Notes under the pieces: model-generated
The model's input: the letters and a program-made list of their open reading frames with translations, nothing else
The model's database searches: none
Told to the model about the DNA's origin: nothing
Program-made: the position numbers and the translations under genes
IMG/VR virus record: IMGVR_UViG_2700989509_000022
Reading direction: 5' to 3' (one strand)
DNA: 14,452 bases
Source: a virus
Taxonomy: Duplodnaviria; Heunggongvirae; Uroviricota; Caudoviricetes
Part shown: positions 1,098 through 13,164 of the stretch, in pieces
Position numbering within the stretch: position 1 is the stretch's first letter
Layout: every line of letters begins with the position of its first letter

Positions 1098-1349
1098 TTA
1101 TTCTTCTGCAAAAGCTGAAAAGCCTGCTTTTATTCCGATCTCTTTCAGTGCCTGTAATGAAGTGACAAACTCACCTTCGCGCAAGATAAATCCGTCTGTC
1201 ACTCGACCATCCACAAAATTAATTAACGCAGCCCCATTCTTTCGCAAACACATAATGCGGTAATGACTAACAAGATTTCCATTTTCAACGCACACAGCAT
1301 AGAGGCCATCTTCACAAAAAATTTTACGCAGTTCTTCGATGTTCATCAT
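1098..1349 (-). CDS. Rem-like small prophage protein (83 aa)
   Basis: 83-aa ORF immediately downstream of hok on the same strand, matching the rem-hokD neighbourhood and the 83-aa size of Rem in the K-12 Qin prophage (recalled, not searched). Confidence 0.55.
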   Translation of the reverse strand: MMNIEELRKIFCEDGLYAVCVENGNLVSHYRIMCLRKNGAALINFVDGRVTDGFILREGEFVTSLQALKEIGIKAGFSAFAEE

Positions 1350-1565: not shown

Positions 1566-1721
1566 TTACTCCTCAGGTTCGTAAGCTGTGAAGACAGCGA
1601 CCTCCGTCTGGCCGGTTCGGATTCGTACCTCGCAGAGGTCTTTCCTCGTTACCAGTGTCGTCACTATGACGGTTAAACAGATGACGATCAGGGCGATTAA
1701 CATCGCCTTTTGCTGCTTCAT
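1566..1721 (-). CDS. hok: Hok/Gef-family type I toxin (51 aa)
   Basis: MKQQKAMLIALIVICLTVIVTTLVTRKDLCEVRIRTGQTEVAVFTAYEPEE matches the Hok/Gef membrane toxin pattern, closest to HokD/RelF as I recall it. ATG at 1721 with AAGGAG 9 nt upstream. An in-frame upstream ATG at 1778 may reflect the mok frame. Confidence 0.8.
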   Translation of the reverse strand: MKQQKAMLIALIVICLTVIVTTLVTRKDLCEVRIRTGQTEVAVFTAYEPEE

Positions 1722-2033
1722 AGCCTGCTTCTCCTTGCCTTCCGGCACGTAAGAGGCTAACCTACATGTGTCTAGCATAAATTGGCCTCAGATTAATGTT
1801 AAGCGTCTTGCAGGACGCGTAATGTTAACTGGGGCTTTTCTCTATCTGCCTTTGGTGTTCATGCCTGAGACAGATAGCCTCAAGCACCCGCAGCCATTCT
1901 ACTTAACTCCCGTTACCCCGCCAATATGAAATCAGTCAGAAAGGCGATCCATAAGAATAATGAATTCTGTAAGGCAATAGTCTCACTGTCTAACATATCT
2001 TACCTGATTACTTTACAATATAATAATTCATAG

Positions 2034-2678
2034 TTAAATCAAATGAATGTCATCATCCAATAATTCATTAGTAGTAATACTACCTTTTTTGAAAAAATTT
2101 TCATTTGCCTCAGCAATTTTTGCATCATTAACAAATTCATCACACATCCCAAAATAATGAAAAAATCTATTTAGTTTACATATTCCAATGGTATAGTGCC
2201 CTTTAGGTGTTTTGTCCACATAAACACGATTTGCTTTTATAATATGCATCTCATAATCATCTATATGTGGATGAACGATGCGAAATGATGCAGATGCAGT
2301 TGGATAGTTTTTGCGCCGCCCCCCATTTATTACGGGTTCAAATAACACTTCATTTTTACCTTTGAATTCATTGCAGTCAGGACATACTACACATAGATTC
2401 TTAGGTTCAAAAATAAAACATAGATATTGAGATTTTGGCACAATATGCTCTATAGGAGCAGCTTGTGCAGCTCTTACCCCAATAGGCTCATGACAATATA
2501 CACATTCTAGCTTTTGTTCTTCTCTGTAATGATTTCTAATTTCTGCACGGAGAACTTGCAAATCATCATCTCCCCAGTTGGTATGCTTAAAATCTGGAGA
2601 AGACAATTTTTTCTCAATAATATCTAATGACTCTGCGCTGAATCTAATTGGATTTTTAATTTTTGGCATAAATTTCAC
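2034..2678 (-). CDS. HNH endonuclease, PtuB-like (Septu-like nuclease component)
   Basis: CVYCHEP ... IEHIVPKS ... CVVCPDCNEFKGKN gives CxxC, a catalytic His and CxxCxxCN, i.e. an HNH ββα-metal motif. Visibly AT-rich. Start is GTG at 2678 or ATG at 2669, with AGGTG upstream. Overlaps the upstream ATPase by 14-23 nt. Confidence 0.7.
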   Translation of the reverse strand: MKFMPKIKNPIRFSAESLDIIEKKLSSPDFKHTNWGDDDLQVLRAEIRNHYREEQKLECVYCHEPIGVRAAQAAPIEHIVPKSQYLCFIFEPKNLCVVCPDCNEFKGKNEVLFEPVINGGRRKNYPTASASFRIVHPHIDDYEMHIIKANRVYVDKTPKGHYTIGICKLNRFFHYFGMCDEFVNDAKIAEANENFFKKGSITTNELLDDDIHLI

Positions 2679-4029
2679 ACACCTGAGATACGGAATTTAC
2701 GAGTTCATTAATAGGGTCATTACTATTAACGTTTTCAAGGAGAAGCTGGAGTTGTTTTAATTCACGCCAATTATCATCTGTTACTAACTTAGCAGTCTTA
2801 ACTTTTGAAAGTAAATTGAAAGCTAATCTGGCAATGTATTCATTCATAATGCCAGGGGCATCAAATAGTTCCGCAAGTTGATAGTCTGCAGACCGGTTGC
2901 TAAAGTATTTTGCTTTATAAAGATAACTTTTCGACAAAGATGTTATATAACAACCTTTATTCGGCAAATTGGATATTATTTGTGGTGAATGAGTTGCAAT
3001 TATGAATTGACAACCTGAGTAAGTTAAAAATGCTTTTGTTAACATAATGATAAACTCTTCCTGCCATCGAGGATGCAAGCTTATTTCCGGTTCATCAATT
3101 AGTATTATAGAACCATCAGTTATATGCCCTGCAATTCCAAGCAACATCACTAATAAACATTGTTCTCCCGAGCTCGCACGTTTAAGTGACATGGGACCAT
3201 AGCTTTTTTTTATGAGTCGCATATCCATCAATCTCATGAAGCCAGCGTTCATAAGTTTAAGAATTGATCTAGAAAAATAATTATTCGCATAAGTCGAGCC
3301 AACCAATGTTTCACCATTGGTAAAATCGACTGACAAGGTTACAGCCCTACGTTCAGGTTCAAATCGATTAATTTCAACCAGTGCTTCGTAAATATCATGA
3401 CGTGATTCGGAGTTTAACTTTAAGAGACTCTCAATATTCTTCCTGTCAATTTTTATATTGTATTTTAAATATAACTCCTTAACTTCCGTTAATATCTCAT
3501 CTGAATATACACCAATGAAGTTATAGTCAGGAGTGTCCGGTCCGTTGTAAGTTGGTTTAAATACAAACTCTATATGGGGCTCAAAATCAATAGAATGAAA
3601 AACATCGAGTAAATTTGCAGGATTTTCTGAATAAGCAAGTTTCTCTAGCCAACCTCTCGCTGCTGAAGATAAAAGGGATACGGCATTTGATACGCCGAAG
3701 GGGCCTTCTCCACGCATACCCACATAGCGATAATTATTTTCTTTCCTTTGGTGATTTAATGACCTACGCCCTGGAGGGAATTTATCGAATGGGCTGGTAG
3801 ATACGGCAATTAACTTTGGTGTTATTTCTCTGTCAAATAATGGATTAAAAGTTTTCAAGAAATGAACATCTTGAATACAGTCTTTAGCAATCTGAGATAA
3901 CAATCTGCTTTTTCCAACGCCATTTTTACCTACAATTACTGTAAAAATATTCGCATTATCAGAAACATCACCTTCTACAGCAAGTTTTAAGGTTCGACTA
4001 TCATGATGGGTATAATATAGTCTTTTCAT
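2656..4029 (-). CDS. ABC/AAA_21-type ATPase, PtuA-like (Septu-like ATPase component)
   Basis: Walker A VGKNGVGKS, signature-like ASSGEQ, Walker B IILIDEPEISLHP and H-loop IIATHSPQI in a 457-aa ORF. AT-rich, and the stop overlaps the start of the HNH gene. Confidence 0.75.
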   Translation of the reverse strand: MKRLYYTHHDSRTLKLAVEGDVSDNANIFTVIVGKNGVGKSRLLSQIAKDCIQDVHFLKTFNPLFDREITPKLIAVSTSPFDKFPPGRRSLNHQRKENNYRYVGMRGEGPFGVSNAVSLLSSAARGWLEKLAYSENPANLLDVFHSIDFEPHIEFVFKPTYNGPDTPDYNFIGVYSDEILTEVKELYLKYNIKIDRKNIESLLKLNSESRHDIYEALVEINRFEPERRAVTLSVDFTNGETLVGSTYANNYFSRSILKLMNAGFMRLMDMRLIKKSYGPMSLKRASSGEQCLLVMLLGIAGHITDGSIILIDEPEISLHPRWQEEFIIMLTKAFLTYSGCQFIIATHSPQIISNLPNKGCYITSLSKSYLYKAKYFSNRSADYQLAELFDAPGIMNEYIARLAFNLLSKVKTAKLVTDDNWRELKQLQLLLENVNSNDPINELVNSVSQVCEIYAKN

Positions 4030-6656: not shown

Positions 6657-7322
6657 TCAGACAAGCCCAGCCGCTTTCCGGCGTTCATATTCCTGTTTCA
6701 GCAACTCAATTGGCGTTGGCCCCGACGGGCGTTTGGGTGCCGCCAGTTGTCGCCGGACTGGCGGAACACTCAGGCCGTTACTAACATGCTTTGCCCATTT
6801 CGTCAGCTGCCGTTCTGCAAGCCGTTTTAACTCCCCTTCGGTCATCTGCCGCTCAATCCCCTTTGAACGCATCTCGAGGCAAATGTGATACAGCACAGGC
6901 TGAGACCACGGGTATTTATCGCTCCCGTCGTATCGCCAGGACTCGTTGCGCCAGCGACGGTACTCCTCCATCACGGCATCCACCGTCAGACCGAATGGAT
7001 TGGCTCCGCTTTCAGAAATCAGCGCCACAAACTCAGCCAGGTCCGGAGGCCATGTTTCACCCGCCCGGCAGCGGTCCATGCACTGGCGGCAGACCTGTCG
7101 GATTTGCTGCTCAGTCATCGCACCAATCTGTGCAATCCAGAGCTTCGAAGGTGCGGCCCCGTTCTTCTGGGTCCAGCGGTTCGAATAAACCTCCCCCATG
7201 AGTTCCCACAGCTTCCAGGCCGTTTCCGTCGCTGATAAATCCGTTTTCACGTTCCCACTGCTCACGTGCTGCCCGAATTTCCTGAACTGCCCGTGATGCG
7301 GTGTCACCTGGTGCTGCTGCAT
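6657..7322 (-). CDS. Replication protein P-like (helicase loader)
   Basis: YPWSQPVLYHICLEMRSKGIERQMTEGELKRLAERQLTKWAKHV parallels the lambda P C-terminal region (recalled). ATG at 7322 with AGGGGG 6 nt upstream. The first ~210 nt overlap the O-like gene out of frame; alternative in-frame starts exist at 7199 and 7118. Confidence 0.7.
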   Translation of the reverse strand: MQQHQVTPHHGQFRKFGQHVSSGNVKTDLSATETAWKLWELMGEVYSNRWTQKNGAAPSKLWIAQIGAMTEQQIRQVCRQCMDRCRAGETWPPDLAEFVALISESGANPFGLTVDAVMEEYRRWRNESWRYDGSDKYPWSQPVLYHICLEMRSKGIERQMTEGELKRLAERQLTKWAKHVSNGLSVPPVRRQLAAPKRPSGPTPIELLKQEYERRKAAGLV

Positions 7323-8151
7323 GGTTTACCCCCTTGCTGACTGGTTTAACCTGCGCCCTGACGTGATTTACGTGACGGGCGAATTTCTGCTCCCACTGAA
7401 TCTGCGTAAACACTTTCCCCTCAGCAGCCCAGTAGTCCCGGAAGGCGGCAAGTTCAGCAGGTGTGAATTCTGTCTCCGGCAAAGCCATCCCCCACAACGC
7501 AGCCCGTCGTCGAAAATCCCGTGACGGATACCAGCTATCGGTCATCGGAAATTTTTCGATGGGTTCGCTCAGGCCATCCAGGAATACAGGAGGTGCAGCC
7601 TGTAACGACAAAACTTTCTGCTCACTGGTCGGAGCACTCTCGCGTGCGTTATGTGTGGGGTTTAGCTCTTTGGGTTCCTTTGGGTTCCGTGATCCGTTTT
7701 TGGGTGTCTTTGATGGAAAATTTGGGTGTCTTTGGTTATTTTCCATGCAGCTAAGAGTTCCGTTTTTGGGTCTGTTTTGTGCTGAAACATAACCATTTTC
7801 GGTACTGTTTTTATTAACAGCACCGATTTTACCCACCTTTAAAGACTCCCGTTTTTGGGTGTATTCAGGCTCGGCAACACTTTCTTCTACACCGATAAGT
7901 CGGTACACCACAATTTGCTTTGTTCTGCCTTTTCTCTCACCGGTATCAACAATTAACCCAATCTCCATCAGGTGTCGTAAGCTGTCCTGCACAGTCTTTT
8001 TGTTCAGTTCCGTTACTTCTGCCAGTGCAGATACAGACGGGTATGCACACAAATCGGCACCGCACATATCAGCAAGCCAGGTCAATACTGACTTACTGGA
8101 TGAACTGCCGGTTTTCACCTTTTTAGCCCATCGTAGTGCATCGATACTCAT
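7111..8151 (-). CDS. Replication initiator, O-like HTH N-terminus with DnaT-like C-terminal region
   Basis: N-terminus MSIDALRWAKK...SVSALAEVTELNKKTVQDSLRHLMEIGLI is a winged-helix/HTH. It sits between the YdaT-like and P-like genes as O does in lambdoid phages. ATG at 8151 with a G-rich RBS; the track extends the ORF to 8226. Confidence 0.65.
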   Translation of the reverse strand: MSIDALRWAKKVKTGSSSSKSVLTWLADMCGADLCAYPSVSALAEVTELNKKTVQDSLRHLMEIGLIVDTGERKGRTKQIVVYRLIGVEESVAEPEYTQKRESLKVGKIGAVNKNSTENGYVSAQNRPKNGTLSCMENNQRHPNFPSKTPKNGSRNPKEPKELNPTHNARESAPTSEQKVLSLQAAPPVFLDGLSEPIEKFPMTDSWYPSRDFRRRAALWGMALPETEFTPAELAAFRDYWAAEGKVFTQIQWEQKFARHVNHVRAQVKPVSKGVNHAAAPGDTASRAVQEIRAAREQWERENGFISDGNGLEAVGTHGGGLFEPLDPEERGRTFEALDCTDWCDD

Positions 8152-8674
8152 ACGACCCCCTGGCAGACATTTGTTTATCTGCAAAGTAATATTGATATTG
8201 CTGACGATACGCATGCTTGAAAGCAATAGCTTTTTCTATAAGCTCGTCAGTCTCACGTTCCACAACAGATGGATCCGCAAAAAGCAGCCCGGACTCCACC
8301 ACATCGCCATATTCTTTGTTTAATCCGGCGATCATGTACGTAATGCTTTTTCCATCACTGATCTCACGATACAGCCTGAAATCACTAATTCGGATAGCCT
8401 CCATAATTGCCGGAATCAGCGCCGTGAATTTTTTCCGCTTATCCCTGGTGTCGATAGCTTTCCAGCGTTCGAATATCTTCACCCGGTTAACGCACAGCGC
8501 CCGTTGATCAACCTCGCCATCATTAAACGTGACGCGTTGAACATCGATGTTCGGACGTTCTTTCAGAGCCCAGAATGCTTCCGTGATTAATATCGTCGCC
8601 TGCTCCTGTGTCATTCCTGGTCGGCATACCCAGGCATCCAGAGCCTCACAAACCTGTTCAGGGGTGATTTTCAT
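8123..8674 (-). CDS. YdaT-like (CII-position) prophage regulatory protein
   Basis: MKITPEQVCEALDAW... and KIFERWKAIDTRDKRKKFTALIPAIMEAI resemble Rac YdaT as I recall it. It occupies the position after the cro-like gene. Confidence 0.5.
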   Translation of the reverse strand: MKITPEQVCEALDAWVCRPGMTQEQATILITEAFWALKERPNIDVQRVTFNDGEVDQRALCVNRVKIFERWKAIDTRDKRKKFTALIPAIMEAIRISDFRLYREISDGKSITYMIAGLNKEYGDVVESGLLFADPSVVERETDELIEKAIAFKHAYRQQYQYYFADKQMSARGSYEYRCTTMG

Positions 8675-8885
8675 TGTTCAACCGCCCCGCCCGCTTTGCC
8701 TTACGATATTCGTCATAAACTTTGGGGTCGTACTGAAGTTCCCCGCCGGATGCCTCTTGCAGGCGCATCGCGCGACCTTCAGGAACCAGTTCCCCCCATT
8801 GAGAAACAGCAGATGGATCAACACCAGCAGCTTTCGCTACTTTGGCTTTCGTCCCATAAAAATTAATTACGTCTGATTTAAACAT
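8658..8885 (-). CDS. DicC/Cro-like HTH regulator (75 aa)
   Basis: MFKSDVINFYGTKAKVAKAAGVDPSAVSQWGELVPEGRAMRLQEASGGELQYDPKVYDEYRK, divergent from the repressor gene. ATG at 8885 with GGAGG 5 nt upstream. Confidence 0.75.
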   Translation of the reverse strand: MFKSDVINFYGTKAKVAKAAGVDPSAVSQWGELVPEGRAMRLQEASGGELQYDPKVYDEYRKAKRAGRLNNENHP

Positions 8886-8962
8886 CACCCCTCCAAAGTT
8901 GAGTTTTCTCAATAGTAATCACTCAAGGAATCTCAAGTCAAGGGTTATTAAGATATCTAAAT
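8886..8962. promoter_or_regulatory. OR-like divergent promoter/operator region between the cro-like and repressor genes
   Basis: Minus-strand TTGACT (8936..8941), 18-nt spacer, TACTAT (8912..8917). Inverted repeat TTGAGTTTTCTCAA at 8899..8912 abuts the -10. The repressor ATG at 8963 has no Shine-Dalgarno, so it may be leaderless like lambda cI from PRM (inference). Confidence 0.55.
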
Positions 8963-9370
8963 ATGAACGAGAAAACTTTAGGTCAACGAATTAGAGAAAG
9001 ACGCAAACAGGTTGGTTTAAGTCAAAACGATTTAAGCAAAGCTGCTGGCGTATCTGGCTCATCAATTTCACTATGGGAAAGCGACCATACAGCCCCGCGC
9101 GGGCAAAATTTGCATCGCCTGGCTGAGGTATTGCAATGTTCACCAACTTGGATACTGTTTGGTGACGAGGATAAAACACCAGATCCACCAGTTGCACTCA
9201 ACAGCGCCTTAGACTTATCGGAAGATGAGTTGGAGATGTTGCGATTGTATCGCGCACTTCCAAAATCAGAGCAGCAAGCACAAATCAGCGAACTCCGTGC
9301 CCGCGTTGAGAATTTTAATCGCCTATTCACCGAGCTACTAGAAGCTCGCAAACGTAACAAACATCAATAA
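8963..9370 (+). CDS. DicA-like XRE-family HTH repressor (135 aa)
   Basis: QRIRERRKQVGLSQNDLSKAAGVSGSSISLWE is an XRE HTH; LQCSPTWILFGDEDK and the C-terminal RARVENFNRLFTELLEARKR match Qin DicA as I recall it. Confidence 0.8.
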   Translation: MNEKTLGQRIRERRKQVGLSQNDLSKAAGVSGSSISLWESDHTAPRGQNLHRLAEVLQCSPTWILFGDEDKTPDPPVALNSALDLSEDELEMLRLYRALPKSEQQAQISELRARVENFNRLFTELLEARKRNKHQ

Positions 9371-9423
9371 CCCCCCTTCACAAATTTTAAAGTCTTACAT
9401 TTCAATGTATTGGCTTTATTTTG

Positions 9424-9484
9424 CATTAAATATTGAGTTTTCTCATCAAAAGCACTTGACCAATATTCATGAGAAAACTAAATT
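9424..9484 (+). promoter_or_regulatory. PL-like promoter with two copies of the operator motif
   Basis: TTGACC (9456..9461), 17-nt spacer, TAAATT (9479..9484). TTGAGTTTTCTCA at 9433..9445 and its reverse complement at 9469..9481 flank or overlap the promoter. Confidence 0.5.
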
Positions 9485-9561
9485 ACGATCCATCAAGACA
9501 CCGCACGGTGTTCTCAGCAAACAGTTCCGCTACCCCGGCGTTAAGGGGAAATGAGGTCAAC

Positions 9562-9714
9562 ATGGATACTATCGATCTTGGCAACAACGAATCTCTGGTG
9601 TACGGCGTGTTCCCCAACCAGGGCGGTACGTTCACCGCGATGACATATACCAAAAGCAAAACGTTTAAAACCGAATCTGGCGCGCGTTGCTGGTTAGCCA
9701 GAAACACTGACTGA
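9562..9714 (+). CDS. Small prophage protein, YdfA-like (50 aa)
   Basis: ATG at 9562 with GAGG 5 nt upstream. It is the first gene after the repressor, as ydfA is after dicA in Qin. Similarity is recalled, not searched. Confidence 0.5.
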   Translation: MDTIDLGNNESLVYGVFPNQGGTFTAMTYTKSKTFKTESGARCWLARNTD

Positions 9715-9750
9715 TGAGGCTGACGATGGAATTTAAAGATTTACCGTCTG

Positions 9751-10668
9751 ATGTACAGAAAACAGCAGCTCATACATTGCATTCTGTGCTGCGAGAAATC
9801 GGGAAAGATATTGCAAGCGAGCCAGCAACAGGAACCGGAAAAAGTCTGCACCGCCTGCGGTCAGAGCGGTGGCGGCAACTGCCCTGATTGTGGCGCGGTG
9901 ATGGGTGACACAACATACCAGGAAATATTCGATGAAGAGAATCAGCCTGAAGTTCAGGAAAATGATCCGGAGGAAATGGAAGGTACTGCACATCAGCACA
10001 AGGAGAACACTGGCGGCAATCAGCATCATGCCAGCGATAGTGAAACTGGCGAGGCGTCAGATCCCTTAATTAAGGCGAACAGTCATCATAATCTCACATC
10101 CACCAGCAGAGCGGGGATTCATCTGATGATCGACCTTGAAACCATGGGAAAAAATCCCGATGCCCCGATTATCTCAATAGGCGCAATATTTTTCGATCCG
10201 CAAACCGGAGATATGGGACCAGAATTTAGCAAGACCATCGATCTGGATACTGCTGGCGGAGTCATTGATCGTGACGTCATTAAATGGTGGCTGAAGCAAT
10301 CACGTGAAGCGCAGTCTGCCATTATGACCGATGAAATCCCGTTAGATGATGCACTACTGCAATTGCGGGAATTTATCGACGAAAACTCCGGTGAATTTTT
10401 TGTTCAGGTCTGGGGTAATGGGGCCAACTTCGACAACGTGATTTTACGCCGTTCATACGAACGACAGGGTATCCCCTGCCCGTGGCGCTACAGCAACGAT
10501 CGCGATGTACGCACAATCGTTGAGCTGGGGAAAGCCATAGACTTCGATGCCAGAACTGCTATCCCATTCGAAGGTGAGCACCATAATGCACTTGATGACG
10601 CTCGTTACCAGGCAAAATACGTTTCAGCTATCTGGCAAAAACTGATCCCGAGTCAGGCTGATTTTTAA
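9751..10668 (+). CDS. DEDDh 3'-5' exonuclease-domain protein with Cys-rich/acidic N-terminal region; start uncertain
   Basis: Exo motifs MIDLET (D-x-E), WGNGANFD and HHNALDDA (H-x4-D). Possible starts: 9751 (no SD; CxxCC...CxxC...CxxC zinc-ribbon-like), 10126 (MIDLETMG with GGGGA upstream), or a frameshifted fusion with the 54-codon ORF at 9726..9887, which has a good RBS. Confidence 0.7.
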   Translation: MYRKQQLIHCILCCEKSGKILQASQQQEPEKVCTACGQSGGGNCPDCGAVMGDTTYQEIFDEENQPEVQENDPEEMEGTAHQHKENTGGNQHHASDSETGEASDPLIKANSHHNLTSTSRAGIHLMIDLETMGKNPDAPIISIGAIFFDPQTGDMGPEFSKTIDLDTAGGVIDRDVIKWWLKQSREAQSAIMTDEIPLDDALLQLREFIDENSGEFFVQVWGNGANFDNVILRRSYERQGIPCPWRYSNDRDVRTIVELGKAIDFDARTAIPFEGEHHNALDDARYQAKYVSAIWQKLIPSQADF

Positions 10669-10720: not shown

Positions 10721-10930
10721 ATGGCTATGAGCAGCTTATTTTTAACCGAAGATGAATTGCTAATATTAACAGGCTGCAAATATGCAAGCCACCAGCGAAA
10801 ATGGTTAATGGAAAACGGGCTTCCGTTCTATACCAATCGTAGTGGCAAACCGATTGTCAGCCGGGATCTATTTACCTGCAATAAAACTTTACCACCACGC
10901 GAGGTAGAGCCGAATTTTGGTGCAATCTGA
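10721..10930 (+). CDS. xis: Excisionase-like protein (69 aa, DUF4224-like)
   Basis: Small ORF immediately upstream of int; its TGA overlaps the int ATG (TGATG). LTEDELLILTGCKYASHQRKWLMENGLPFY resembles lambdoid Xis-position proteins (recalled). Confidence 0.65.
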   Translation: MAMSSLFLTEDELLILTGCKYASHQRKWLMENGLPFYTNRSGKPIVSRDLFTCNKTLPPREVEPNFGAI

Positions 10931-11955
10931 TGGGAAGACGAAGGAAAAATCCTGAACACGAAAAATTACCTCCAAATGTATACCCAAATAAATATAGTTA
11001 TGTATGGAAACCAACATCCAGAGAATCTGTAACACTAACCGCCATCAAGGATGGTTTAGCTGCTTTATGGAAAAAGTATGAGGAAACTGTAAATAATCAC
11101 GATCGTGCAATGACATTCGGTCGCTTGTGGGAAAAATTCCTCGCCAGCGCCTATTACAGTGACCTTAGTCCAAGAACACAAAAAGATTATCTGCAACATC
11201 AAAAAAAGTTGCTTGCCGTATTCGGTAAGGTACCAGCGGATGCCATAAAACCAGAACACATCCGTCGATACATGGACAAAAGAGGGGAGCAGAGTAAAAC
11301 GCAAGCCAACCATGAAAAAAGCAGTATGTCCCGCGTTTACAGTTGGGGGTATGAGCGAGGTTACGTGAAGGGTAACCCATGTGCAGGTGTAAGTAAATTC
11401 AAGGCCAAAAACCGCGAACGATATGTAACCGACAAAGAATACCAGGCAGTATTAAGCGTTGCACCTCTTCCTGTTTTTATCGCAATGGAAATTGCCTATC
11501 TGTGTGCAGCGAGGGTTTCCGATGTGTTATCACTGAAATGGGAGCAGATTGGAAACGACGGGATCTTTATCCAGCAAGGGAAAACAGGGAAAAAACAGAT
11601 AAAAGCATGGAGTCCACGATTACAGGCGGCGATCGAAAAAGCAAAACAGTTACCAGCATCCGTCTATGTAATCAGCAATCAATATGGCAACCGATATATG
11701 TACAAAGGCTTTAACGAAATGTGGGTAGAAGCAAGAAATCGCGCAGGCAAAATTTCAGGTATTTTAACCGACTTCACCTTTCATGATCTGAAGGCGAAAG
11801 GAATTTCAGACTATGAAGGAAGCAGCCGGGATAAGCAACTTTTCTCTGGTCACAAAACCGAGGGGCAAGTGCTAATCTATGACAGGAAGGTTAAAGTTTC
11901 ACCAACACTTGATGTCCCGTTACCTGAAAATATTCCAAGAAAATATTCCAAGTAA
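10930..11955 (+). CDS. int: Tyrosine-recombinase phage integrase
   Basis: 341-aa ORF with C-terminal catalytic region (...FHDLKAKGISDY...SGHKTEGQVLIYDRK...), ending 52 bp from the 3' end of tRNA-Ser. Confidence 0.9.
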   Translation: MGRRRKNPEHEKLPPNVYPNKYSYVWKPTSRESVTLTAIKDGLAALWKKYEETVNNHDRAMTFGRLWEKFLASAYYSDLSPRTQKDYLQHQKKLLAVFGKVPADAIKPEHIRRYMDKRGEQSKTQANHEKSSMSRVYSWGYERGYVKGNPCAGVSKFKAKNRERYVTDKEYQAVLSVAPLPVFIAMEIAYLCAARVSDVLSLKWEQIGNDGIFIQQGKTGKKQIKAWSPRLQAAIEKAKQLPASVYVISNQYGNRYMYKGFNEMWVEARNRAGKISGILTDFTFHDLKAKGISDYEGSSRDKQLFSGHKTEGQVLIYDRKVKVSPTLDVPLPENIPRKYSK

Positions 11956-12007: not shown

Positions 12008-12097
12008 TGGCGGAGAGAGGGGGATTTGAACCCCCGGTGGAGTTGCCCCCACTCCGGTTTTCGAGACCGGTCCGTTCAGCCGCTCCGGCATCTCTCC
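12008..12097 (-). tRNA. serU: tRNA-Ser (anticodon CGA)
   Basis: Reverse complement reads GGAGAGATGCCGGAGCGGCTGAACGGACCGGTCTCGAAAACC...GGTTCAAATCCCCCTCTCTCCGCCA: type II tRNA with long variable arm, anticodon loop CUCGAAA, encoded CCA. The serU-mtfA-asnT context fits E. coli. Confidence 0.93.
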
Positions 12098-13088: not shown

Positions 13089-13164
13089 TCCTCTGTAGTT
13101 CAGTCGGTAGAACGGCGGACTGTTAATCCGTATGTCACTGGTTCGAGTCCAGTCAGAGGAGCCA
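13089..13164 (+). tRNA. asnT: tRNA-Asn (anticodon GUU)
   Basis: TCCTCTGTAGTTCAGTCGGTAGAACGGCGGACTGTTAATCCGTATGTCACTGGTTCGAGTCCAGTCAGAGGAGCCA, 76 nt, anticodon loop CUGUUAA. Locus identity is inferred from the mtfA neighbour. Confidence 0.93.

Follow-up and report, generated by a model that had tools for sequence, protein, structure and literature searches.

Five candidate operators of a probable P22/Qin-type immunity switch around the DicA-like repressor gene of a lambdoid Escherichia coli prophage

The architecture of the immunity switch of phage P22 was described earlier than 1988. The dicC-dicA-dicBp locus of the Qin prophage in E. coli K-12 has been studied by Bejar et al. in 1988, Yun et al. 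in 2012 and Ragunathan and Vanderpool in 2023. Its dicA/dicC architecture has been known since the first of these studies, as far as that work is reported in later papers (Bejar et al. 1988, through PMC10448788 and PMC3441716). In this locus the operator Oc overlaps the -10 of the dicC promoter, the start of which was mapped by 5'RACE; DicA binds Oc, a single base change abolishes the binding, and DicA represses dicC and activates dicA, while Om and Oa, the equivalents of OR2 and OR3, showed no DicA binding when tested singly in vivo (PMC3441716). DicA also represses dicBp and Rem derepresses it (PMC10448788), DicC gives ChIP-seq peaks on both sides of dicA (PMC11430063), and the dicA mRNA is leaderless by differential RNA-seq (PMC4681348). 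The P22 repressor recognises an 18-bp symmetric consensus, ATTTAAGATATCTTAAAT, of which the central 4 bp are uncontacted, and its Val33 packs against the TpA step of the half-site (PMC4267663, PMC5175364).

The DNA analysed here, referred to as the window, is a stretch of 14,452 nucleotides (IMG/VR virus record IMGVR_UViG_2700989509_000022) and is the early and immunity region of an E. coli lambdoid prophage. Positions 8600-9800 show 99.9% identity to a prophage remnant beside tRNA-Ser, mtfA and yeeJ in E. coli CFSAN004176, and 776 of 5426 complete E. coli genomes (~14%) contain at least 80% of this segment. Over its full length the repressor shares 53-56% identity with K-12 DicA, which together with its HTH_3 match bears out its naming as DicA-like in an earlier note on this DNA, and the other gene assignments of that note were equally right; RefSeq annotation of homologous regions agrees with the assignments of the module genes. 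With the repressor of HannyBb, an isolated phage, it shares 96% identity. In Pfam and PHROGs it matched only HTH families, with no match to Peptidase_S24, and the protein ends at residue 135. The gene has no Shine-Dalgarno sequence, and its mRNA is probably leaderless, because that of K-12 dicA is. The cro-like gene is divergent from it across an intergenic region of 77 bp. Table 1 provides an overview of the features.

Table 1. Positions of the candidate operators, promoters, genes and other features within the window.
Feature	Position	Strand	Sequence or description	Evidence
OR1 candidate	8899..8912		TTGAGTTTTCTCAA, perfect 14-bp palindrome	dyad scan, homology, conservation
OR2 candidate	8923..8936		TCAAGGAATCTCAA, 8/10 half-site matches	dyad scan
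OR3 candidate	8948..8961		TTAAGATATCTAAA, 8/10 half-site matches	dyad scan
OL2 candidate (promoter-distal)	9433..9446		TTGAGTTTTCTCAT	pattern search, conservation, P22 homology
OL1 candidate (promoter-proximal)	9469..9482		ATGAGAAAACTAAA	pattern search, conservation
Candidate operator DNA for repressor dimer			AGTTGAGTTTTCTCAATA	
PR-like promoter, cro-like gene	8912..8941	-	TTGACT (8941..8936), 18-bp spacer, TACTAT (8917..8912)	
PL-like promoter, ydfA operon	9456..9484	+	TTGACC (9456-9461), 17-bp spacer, TAAATT (9479-9484)	
DicA-like repressor, 135 aa	8963..9370	+	short C-terminal domain	HTH_3 domain
Cro/DicC-like protein, 75 aa	8658..8885	-	GGAGG ribosome-binding site	P22_Cro family E=1e-17
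YdaT/cII-like protein	8123-8674	-		YdaT_toxin match (Pfam/PHROGs)
O-like replication protein	7111-8226	-		Pfam/PHROGs
P-like replication protein	6657-7322	-		Pfam/PHROGs
ydfA-like (DUF1391)	9562..9714	+	first gene of PL-like operon	Pfam/PHROGs
Truncated exonuclease	9751-10668	+		Pfam/PHROGs
Integrase	10930-11955	+		Pfam/PHROGs
Rem homologue	1098..1349	-	probable antirepressor	96% identical to K-12 Rem
PtuA ATPase	2656-4029	-		PADLOC E=1e-165
PtuB HNH nuclease	2034-2678	-		E=1e-83
sok antisense RNA of hok/sok module	1716-1889	-		
tRNA gene	12011-12097	-	just beyond integrase	
tRNA gene	13089-13161	+	beyond integrase	

The module has the features of the Qin type, namely a DicA homologue of ~135 aa without a peptidase, a divergent P22_Cro gene, YdaT-like and ydfA neighbours, and palindromic candidate operators at both promoters, the one on the dicC side and the one that follows the repressor gene. 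Window and Qin share the gene order (YdaT-like, cro/dicC, repressor/dicA, ydfA), a repressor of 135 aa, the C-terminal halves of both regulators, in the cro/dicC promoter a site at its -10 and start, a downstream promoter with one site upstream of its -35 and another over its spacer and -10, the -35 hexamers, and a Rem at 96% identity. They differ in the operator, which is TTGAG-N4-CTCAA in the window and TTAGT-N4-ACTAA in Qin (Oc = TTGTTAGTCATAACTAACAA), in the recognition helix of the repressor (SGSSISLWES against SHVSVSQWER) and in that of Cro (DPSAVSQW against RLASLYSW). On sequence evidence, the window allele is heteroimmune to Qin. Both dicF and dicB are absent from the operon of the window, and Rfam found no DicF in the window; other strains with the same immunity allele do carry dicB downstream (L096).

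Outside the switch, the window carries a Septu anti-phage defence pair (2034-4029, minus strand), PtuA and PtuB, the reading frames of which overlap. Iteron-like direct repeats (CCGTTTTTGGGTGT and TTTGGGTGTCTTTG, three times each) lie at 7669-7865 inside the O-like gene, which is the usual place for a lambdoid origin, and a tandem GAAAATATTCCAAG repeat is found at 11926-11952, at the 3' end of the integrase gene. The two tRNA genes, which are Ser and Asn in an annotated near-identical genome, mark the prophage end. The prophage is defective, because the PL operon is ~3.2 kb shorter than in phage HannyBb (at 9705-9825) and the exonuclease reading frame represents only the C-terminal third of an 823-aa protein.

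The earlier note had reported three copies of a 13-bp operator-like motif flanking the repressor gene. In a pattern search of the 14.4-kb window, TTGAGTTTTCTCA was found exactly at 8899-8911 (+) and 9433-9445 (+), whereas the third copy is inverted and inexact, reading TTTAGTTTTCTCA on the minus strand at 9470-9482 with 12 of 13 positions matching; the first copy had thus been given one base too long (8899..8912), and the third lies one base further on than the 9469..9481 first reported. No further copies occur in the whole window at up to two mismatches. The motif corresponds to a 14-bp palindrome, TTGAG-N4-CTCAA, perfect at 8899-8912, and this dyad symmetry is a feature absent from the earlier note. 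A full-text literature search with the motif strings returned nothing relevant, just unrelated eukaryotic primer sequences.

Repeats of this kind could be conserved AT-rich promoter sequence, or low-complexity matches arising by chance, and not protein-binding sites. The regions are AT-rich, the window holds 17 repeated 13-mers in either orientation (~11 separate repeat loci), and a dyad scan with TTGAGNNNNCTCAA that allowed up to two half-site mismatches showed no window-wide enrichment, with 11 matches against 8.1 expected; the six matches with two mismatches beyond the switch (4190, 4457, 4774, 4897, 5806 and 13249) are at chance level. However, the other five matches all fall within 8899-9482, and the dyad symmetry and the local shuffles argue against such an origin. 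A 13-mer common to both intergenic regions flanking the repressor gene (77 and 191 bp) appeared in 2 of 5000 dinucleotide-preserving shuffles. The cro-repressor intergenic (OR) region contains three sites where 0.06 are expected, a number reached in none of 20000 local shuffles, and without OR1 it still contains two against 0.04 (P=0.0003); the OL region downstream of the repressor gene contains two against 0.10 (P=0.004). Five sites clustered within 600 bp were obtained in one of 300 whole-window shuffles. Together with the conservation and co-variation described below, this leaves chance or AT-rich sequence a highly improbable explanation. The idea that a fourth GAGAAAACT copy, at 8968-8980, is a further operator was rejected, because this copy lies inside repressor codons 2-6 (CGAGAAAACTTTA) and is lost in Buttiauxella, where the peptide is different; it is kept only where the peptide MNEKTL is kept.

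All three copies count as candidate sites, but the candidates number five and not three. OR1 overlaps the -10 of the cro-like promoter by one base, as the earlier note had proposed for the first copy and its putative PR, spans the predicted start of this promoter (~8905) and is the positional homologue of Qin Oc and P22 OR1. The OR2 candidate is located in the spacer of the same promoter, touching its -35, and its support is weaker than that of OR1. The OR3 candidate, ending 2 bp before the ATG, overlaps a -10-like hexamer of the repressor's own promoter, TAAGAT (8949-8954), which is found 8 nt before the ATG. On the other side of the gene, OL2 lies just upstream of the -35 of the leftward-operon promoter, with its centre ~52 bp upstream of the predicted start. 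OL1 fills the spacer of the ydfA-operon promoter and overlaps four bases of its -10, TAAATT, so that the proposed overlap of the third copy with a putative PL also holds; it is homologous to P22 OL1 and to the dicBp-proximal site of Qin, and by our reading of the K-12 sequence the dicBp sites occupy the same places as OL2 and OL1. The sites are spaced by 24 bp (OR1-OR2), 25 bp (OR2-OR3) and 36 bp (OL2-OL1), and no third OL site of the P22 OL3 kind, ~19 bp upstream of OL2, was found at up to two mismatches. The dyad centres are TTTT, GAAT, ATAT, TTTT and AAAA for OR1, OR2, OR3, OL2 and OL1, and the half-sites of the three strongest sites are TTGAG or TTTAG. The promoter hexamers are consensus matches only, with two in 8600-9800 against 1.6 expected, and are conserved in homologues: the PR-like -35 is identical in Qin dicCp and P22 PR, and the PL-like -35 is also conserved in Qin dicBp.

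Downstream of the PL-like promoter, the transcript leader (9493-9561, +) is highly conserved and is also found in loci L001, L004, L006, L009 and L014. It contains, in this order, a CATCAAG motif, a hairpin (ACACC-GCAC-GGTGT) and GTTCCGCTACCCCGGCG; in other genera the hairpin is replaced by AATCAC...GTGATT, and the leader of the more distant loci L010-L013 has a hairpin with a GAAAGA loop that is reminiscent of nut boxB. Rfam gave no match for the leader and nothing above noise in 9371-9600, and RNAalifold support is weak.

Conservation was assessed in 26 distinct OR and 51 distinct OL sequences from loci with the same or a similar repressor, taken from GTDB genomes, IMG/VR, phage HannyBb and E. 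coli chromosomes, with Buttiauxella included. Minor alleles per column amounted to 0.21 for OR1, 0.50 for OR2 and 0.00 for OR3, which is invariant in all 26 distinct sequences, and to 0.36 for OL1 and 0.93 for OL2, compared with 1.17 for the -35 hexamer and 2.7 to 13.3 in the 7-10-bp gaps between sites and hexamers. The gaps thus vary freely while the sites do not, contrary to what AT-rich promoter sequence or chance would suggest. The conservation of OR3 could instead come from its function as promoter (-10) or start-codon sequence. In two Buttiauxella loci, the repressors are just 75-76% identical and the flanks mostly different, and yet (T/C)TGAGTTTTCTCAA is kept at all three positions named by the earlier note. 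Since the motif is conserved in related immunity regions including these, with sites kept and gaps variable, the claim came through the test that its author had set for refuting it.

Another reading takes the two OL copies as the arms (9433-9446 and 9469-9482) of an RNA or DNA hairpin in repressor read-through transcripts, e.g. with a role in processing or attenuation. For the 71-nt stretch the predicted folding energy is -11.2 kcal/mol (z = -2.8 relative to shuffled sequences), and Buttiauxella likewise has the TTTT and AAAA centres in opposite orientation. However, no U-tract follows, a comparable hairpin is not conserved, because the two OL sites in Qin and in P22 have unrelated centres, and the copy at 8899 would be left unexplained. 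Any palindromic site that occurs twice necessarily gives a pair of inverted repeats, so that we regard the hairpin as a by-product, and we attach very little probability to a role of this structure in place of operators.

Between immunity types, the operators change with their regulators. With offsets given from the repressor gene, the palindromes are TTAGT-N4-ACTAA in K-12 Qin (OR -66, -16; OL +73) and in L009 (OR -66, -16; OL +78), TTAGA-N4-(C/T)CTAA in L012 (OR -66, -16; OL +42, +76), GTAAC-N4-GTTAG in L013 (OR -57, -32; OL +49) and ATAAC-N4-GTTAT in L014 (OR -63, -38, -18; OL +45, +79). A site at -57 to -66 from the ATG is present in all five loci, one at -16 to -18 in four of them and one at -32 to -38 in two (L013 and L014); two downstream sites 34 bp apart occur in L012 and L014, and in the other loci only one passed the scan threshold. 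The half-sites co-vary with the recognition helices of both regulators, repressor and Cro-like protein; the repressor helices compared were SGSSISLWES, SHVSVSQWER, SHVTISQWET and SSVSVFKWES. The -35 hexamers (TTGACC, TTGACT) stay constant between immunity types and the palindromes are replaced, which is the signature expected of operators and again argues against conserved promoter sequence as the source of the repeats.

The sites might be used by the Cro-like protein alone, or by the YdaT/cII-like factor, with the DicA-like repressor acting elsewhere. Activators of the cII type recognise direct repeats at -35 regions and not palindromes, unlike the palindromic sites found here. As regards the Cro-like protein, co-variation does not discriminate between it and the repressor, because the HTH regions of the two are inherited together in one module. 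A locus of Citrobacter braakii (L006, 1418-2000), which looks like a natural recombinant, has a Cro-like recognition helix nearly the same as that of the window and a different repressor helix; both TTGAG and TTAAG half-sites occur in its operators, and its OR3 matches that of the window exactly. The combination of a shared Cro-like helix and an identical OR3 with a different repressor helix speaks for use by Cro alone, as do the K-12 DicC ChIP-seq peaks at both regions (PMC11430063), and the retention of OR3 beside a different repressor helix, like the match of OR2 and OR3 at only 8 of 10 half-site positions and the negative result for Om and Oa in K-12, counts against repressor operators. 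Against a role of Cro alone, K-12 DicA itself binds Oc and represses dicBp (PMC3441716, PMC10448788), and the DNA-binding domain of the window repressor is a close homologue of that of P22 c2, a repressor whose own sites are homologous and lie at the same positions. Use of the sites without the repressor is therefore improbable, and L006 could help to separate Cro specificity from repressor specificity.

Residues 1-72 of the repressor are 47% identical to the DNA-binding domain of P22 c2 (PDB 1adr/2r1j; E=2e-15 to 1adr), and the operator geometry is as in P22, with an 18-bp symmetric site, 5-bp core half-sites and four central uncontacted bp. A scan with TTAAGNNNNCTTAA recovers the six footprinted operators of P22, three upstream of c2 at -64, -41 and -16 relative to its ATG and three downstream at +51, +70 and +105 relative to its stop; the OR sites of the window lie at -64, -40 and -15, and the OL1-OL2 spacing is 36 in the window and 35 in P22. 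The DNA alignment with P22 runs through OR2-OR3 and through OL2-PL, and sequence homology is found between window and P22 for OR2 (TCAAGGAATCTCAA and TAAAGGAATCTTTA), OR3 (TTAAGATATCTAAA and TTAAGATGACTTAA) and OL2 (TTGAGTTTTCTCAT and TTAAGTTTTCTTCA). Both PL hexamers, TTGACC and TAAATT, are identical in P22, with a spacer of 17 in the window and ~16, judged by eye, in P22. However, the half-site is TTAAG in P22 and TTGAG in the window, one base different per half-site; the recognition helix carries N32, V33 and Q37 in P22 and G32, S33 and L37 in the window; and the strong sites of the window have TTTT or AAAA centres. In addition, P22 has OL3, for which the window shows no counterpart, and its c2 of 216 aa has a RecA-cleavable C-terminal domain, whereas the 135-aa window repressor ends in an unrelated short one. 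A changed specificity on an unchanged binding geometry is coherent with G32/S33/L37 and TTGAG, with the assignment of residues to bases a putative one. In sequence terms, the window allele follows the binding mode of P22 c2 but is heteroimmune to P22.

On the combined evidence of the observed sequences, where they lie relative to the promoter hexamers, how well they are conserved, how they co-vary with the HTH regions, and the homology to P22 and Qin, we consider it very likely that a prophage immunity switch of the P22/Qin type has five operators here and that the motif copies make up three of them. Control of both early promoters by the DicA-like repressor, as the earlier note had proposed, is likewise supported by comparison, because experiments have established binding and repression in P22 immC and Qin, to which the region is homologous. 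For the window itself we infer the following on binding, cooperativity, activation and the respective roles of repressor and Cro. Dimers of the 135-aa repressor would bind 14-18-bp symmetric sites, with half-sites TTGAG/CTCAA separated by four uncontacted A/T base pairs. Repressor at OR1, possibly aided by OR2, would block the cro-like promoter and, by analogy with DicA at Oc, may stimulate the weak leaderless repressor promoter from OR1, whereas repressor at OL1 and OL2 would block the TTGACC-17-TAAATT promoter of the ydfA operon. The same sites are very probably also bound by the Cro-like protein, presumably with other preferences, and OR3 is the likely shut-off site for repressor synthesis, through the Cro-like protein or excess repressor, because it overlaps the -10 of the repressor promoter.

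Derepression is expected to proceed through the antirepressor and not through RecA cleavage, because the repressor lacks an S24 domain and the window contains a Rem homologue. This Rem is 96% identical to K-12 Rem, while the repressor is just ~55% identical to DicA, which suggests that Rem targets a conserved part of the repressor (e.g. LQCSPTWILFGDEDK) and could act across immunity types. A near-identical Rem serving heteroimmune DicA alleles could thereby co-induce several otherwise independent prophages in one cell. As for specificity, the change from TTAAG to TTGAG loses the TpA step that P22 Val33 packs against, N32G, V33S and Q37L may be paired with this change of the half-site, and A44 and R46 may lie at positions that read the central A-tract. 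The combined proposal, that the allele is a natural single-base switch from P22 c2 specificity and that one Rem co-induces several cryptic prophages, is tentative, and we regard it as possible but rather doubtful.

The type of switch is ordinary and well understood, and the result leaves the current understanding of phage switches unchanged; what is new, in a modest way, is the operator sequence and the five-site map of a common heteroimmune allele, an immunity type found in ~14% of complete E. coli genomes and in phage HannyBb. Some strains of this immunity type have the operon of the cell-division inhibitor dicB under the control of the switch. The map lets one predict homo- or heteroimmunity of co-resident prophages, and the locus offers a close natural comparison for the structurally characterised P22 c2-operator complex.

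The arrangement had originally been likened to the OR and OL of lambda on either side of cI. Lambda and the window share the logic of a divergent repressor and cro, a tripartite OR (a candidate one in the window) with sites ~24 bp apart, further operators at the promoter beyond the repressor gene, and, probably, a leaderless repressor mRNA. A sequence relationship between the 17-bp lambda operators and those of the window is not detectable, however, and the window shows only two OL sites and no S24 peptidase domain. Lambda has three operators at each of OR and OL; the OR of the window comprises one perfect site and two 8/10 sites and its OL the two sites seen at up to two mismatches. Oc, the Qin site implicated in activation and the equivalent of OR1, has its centre at ~-57 relative to the repressor start, compared with -42 in lambda. 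The likeness in layout is thus supported, but the closest model for this locus is P22 immC and Qin dicAC, not lambda.
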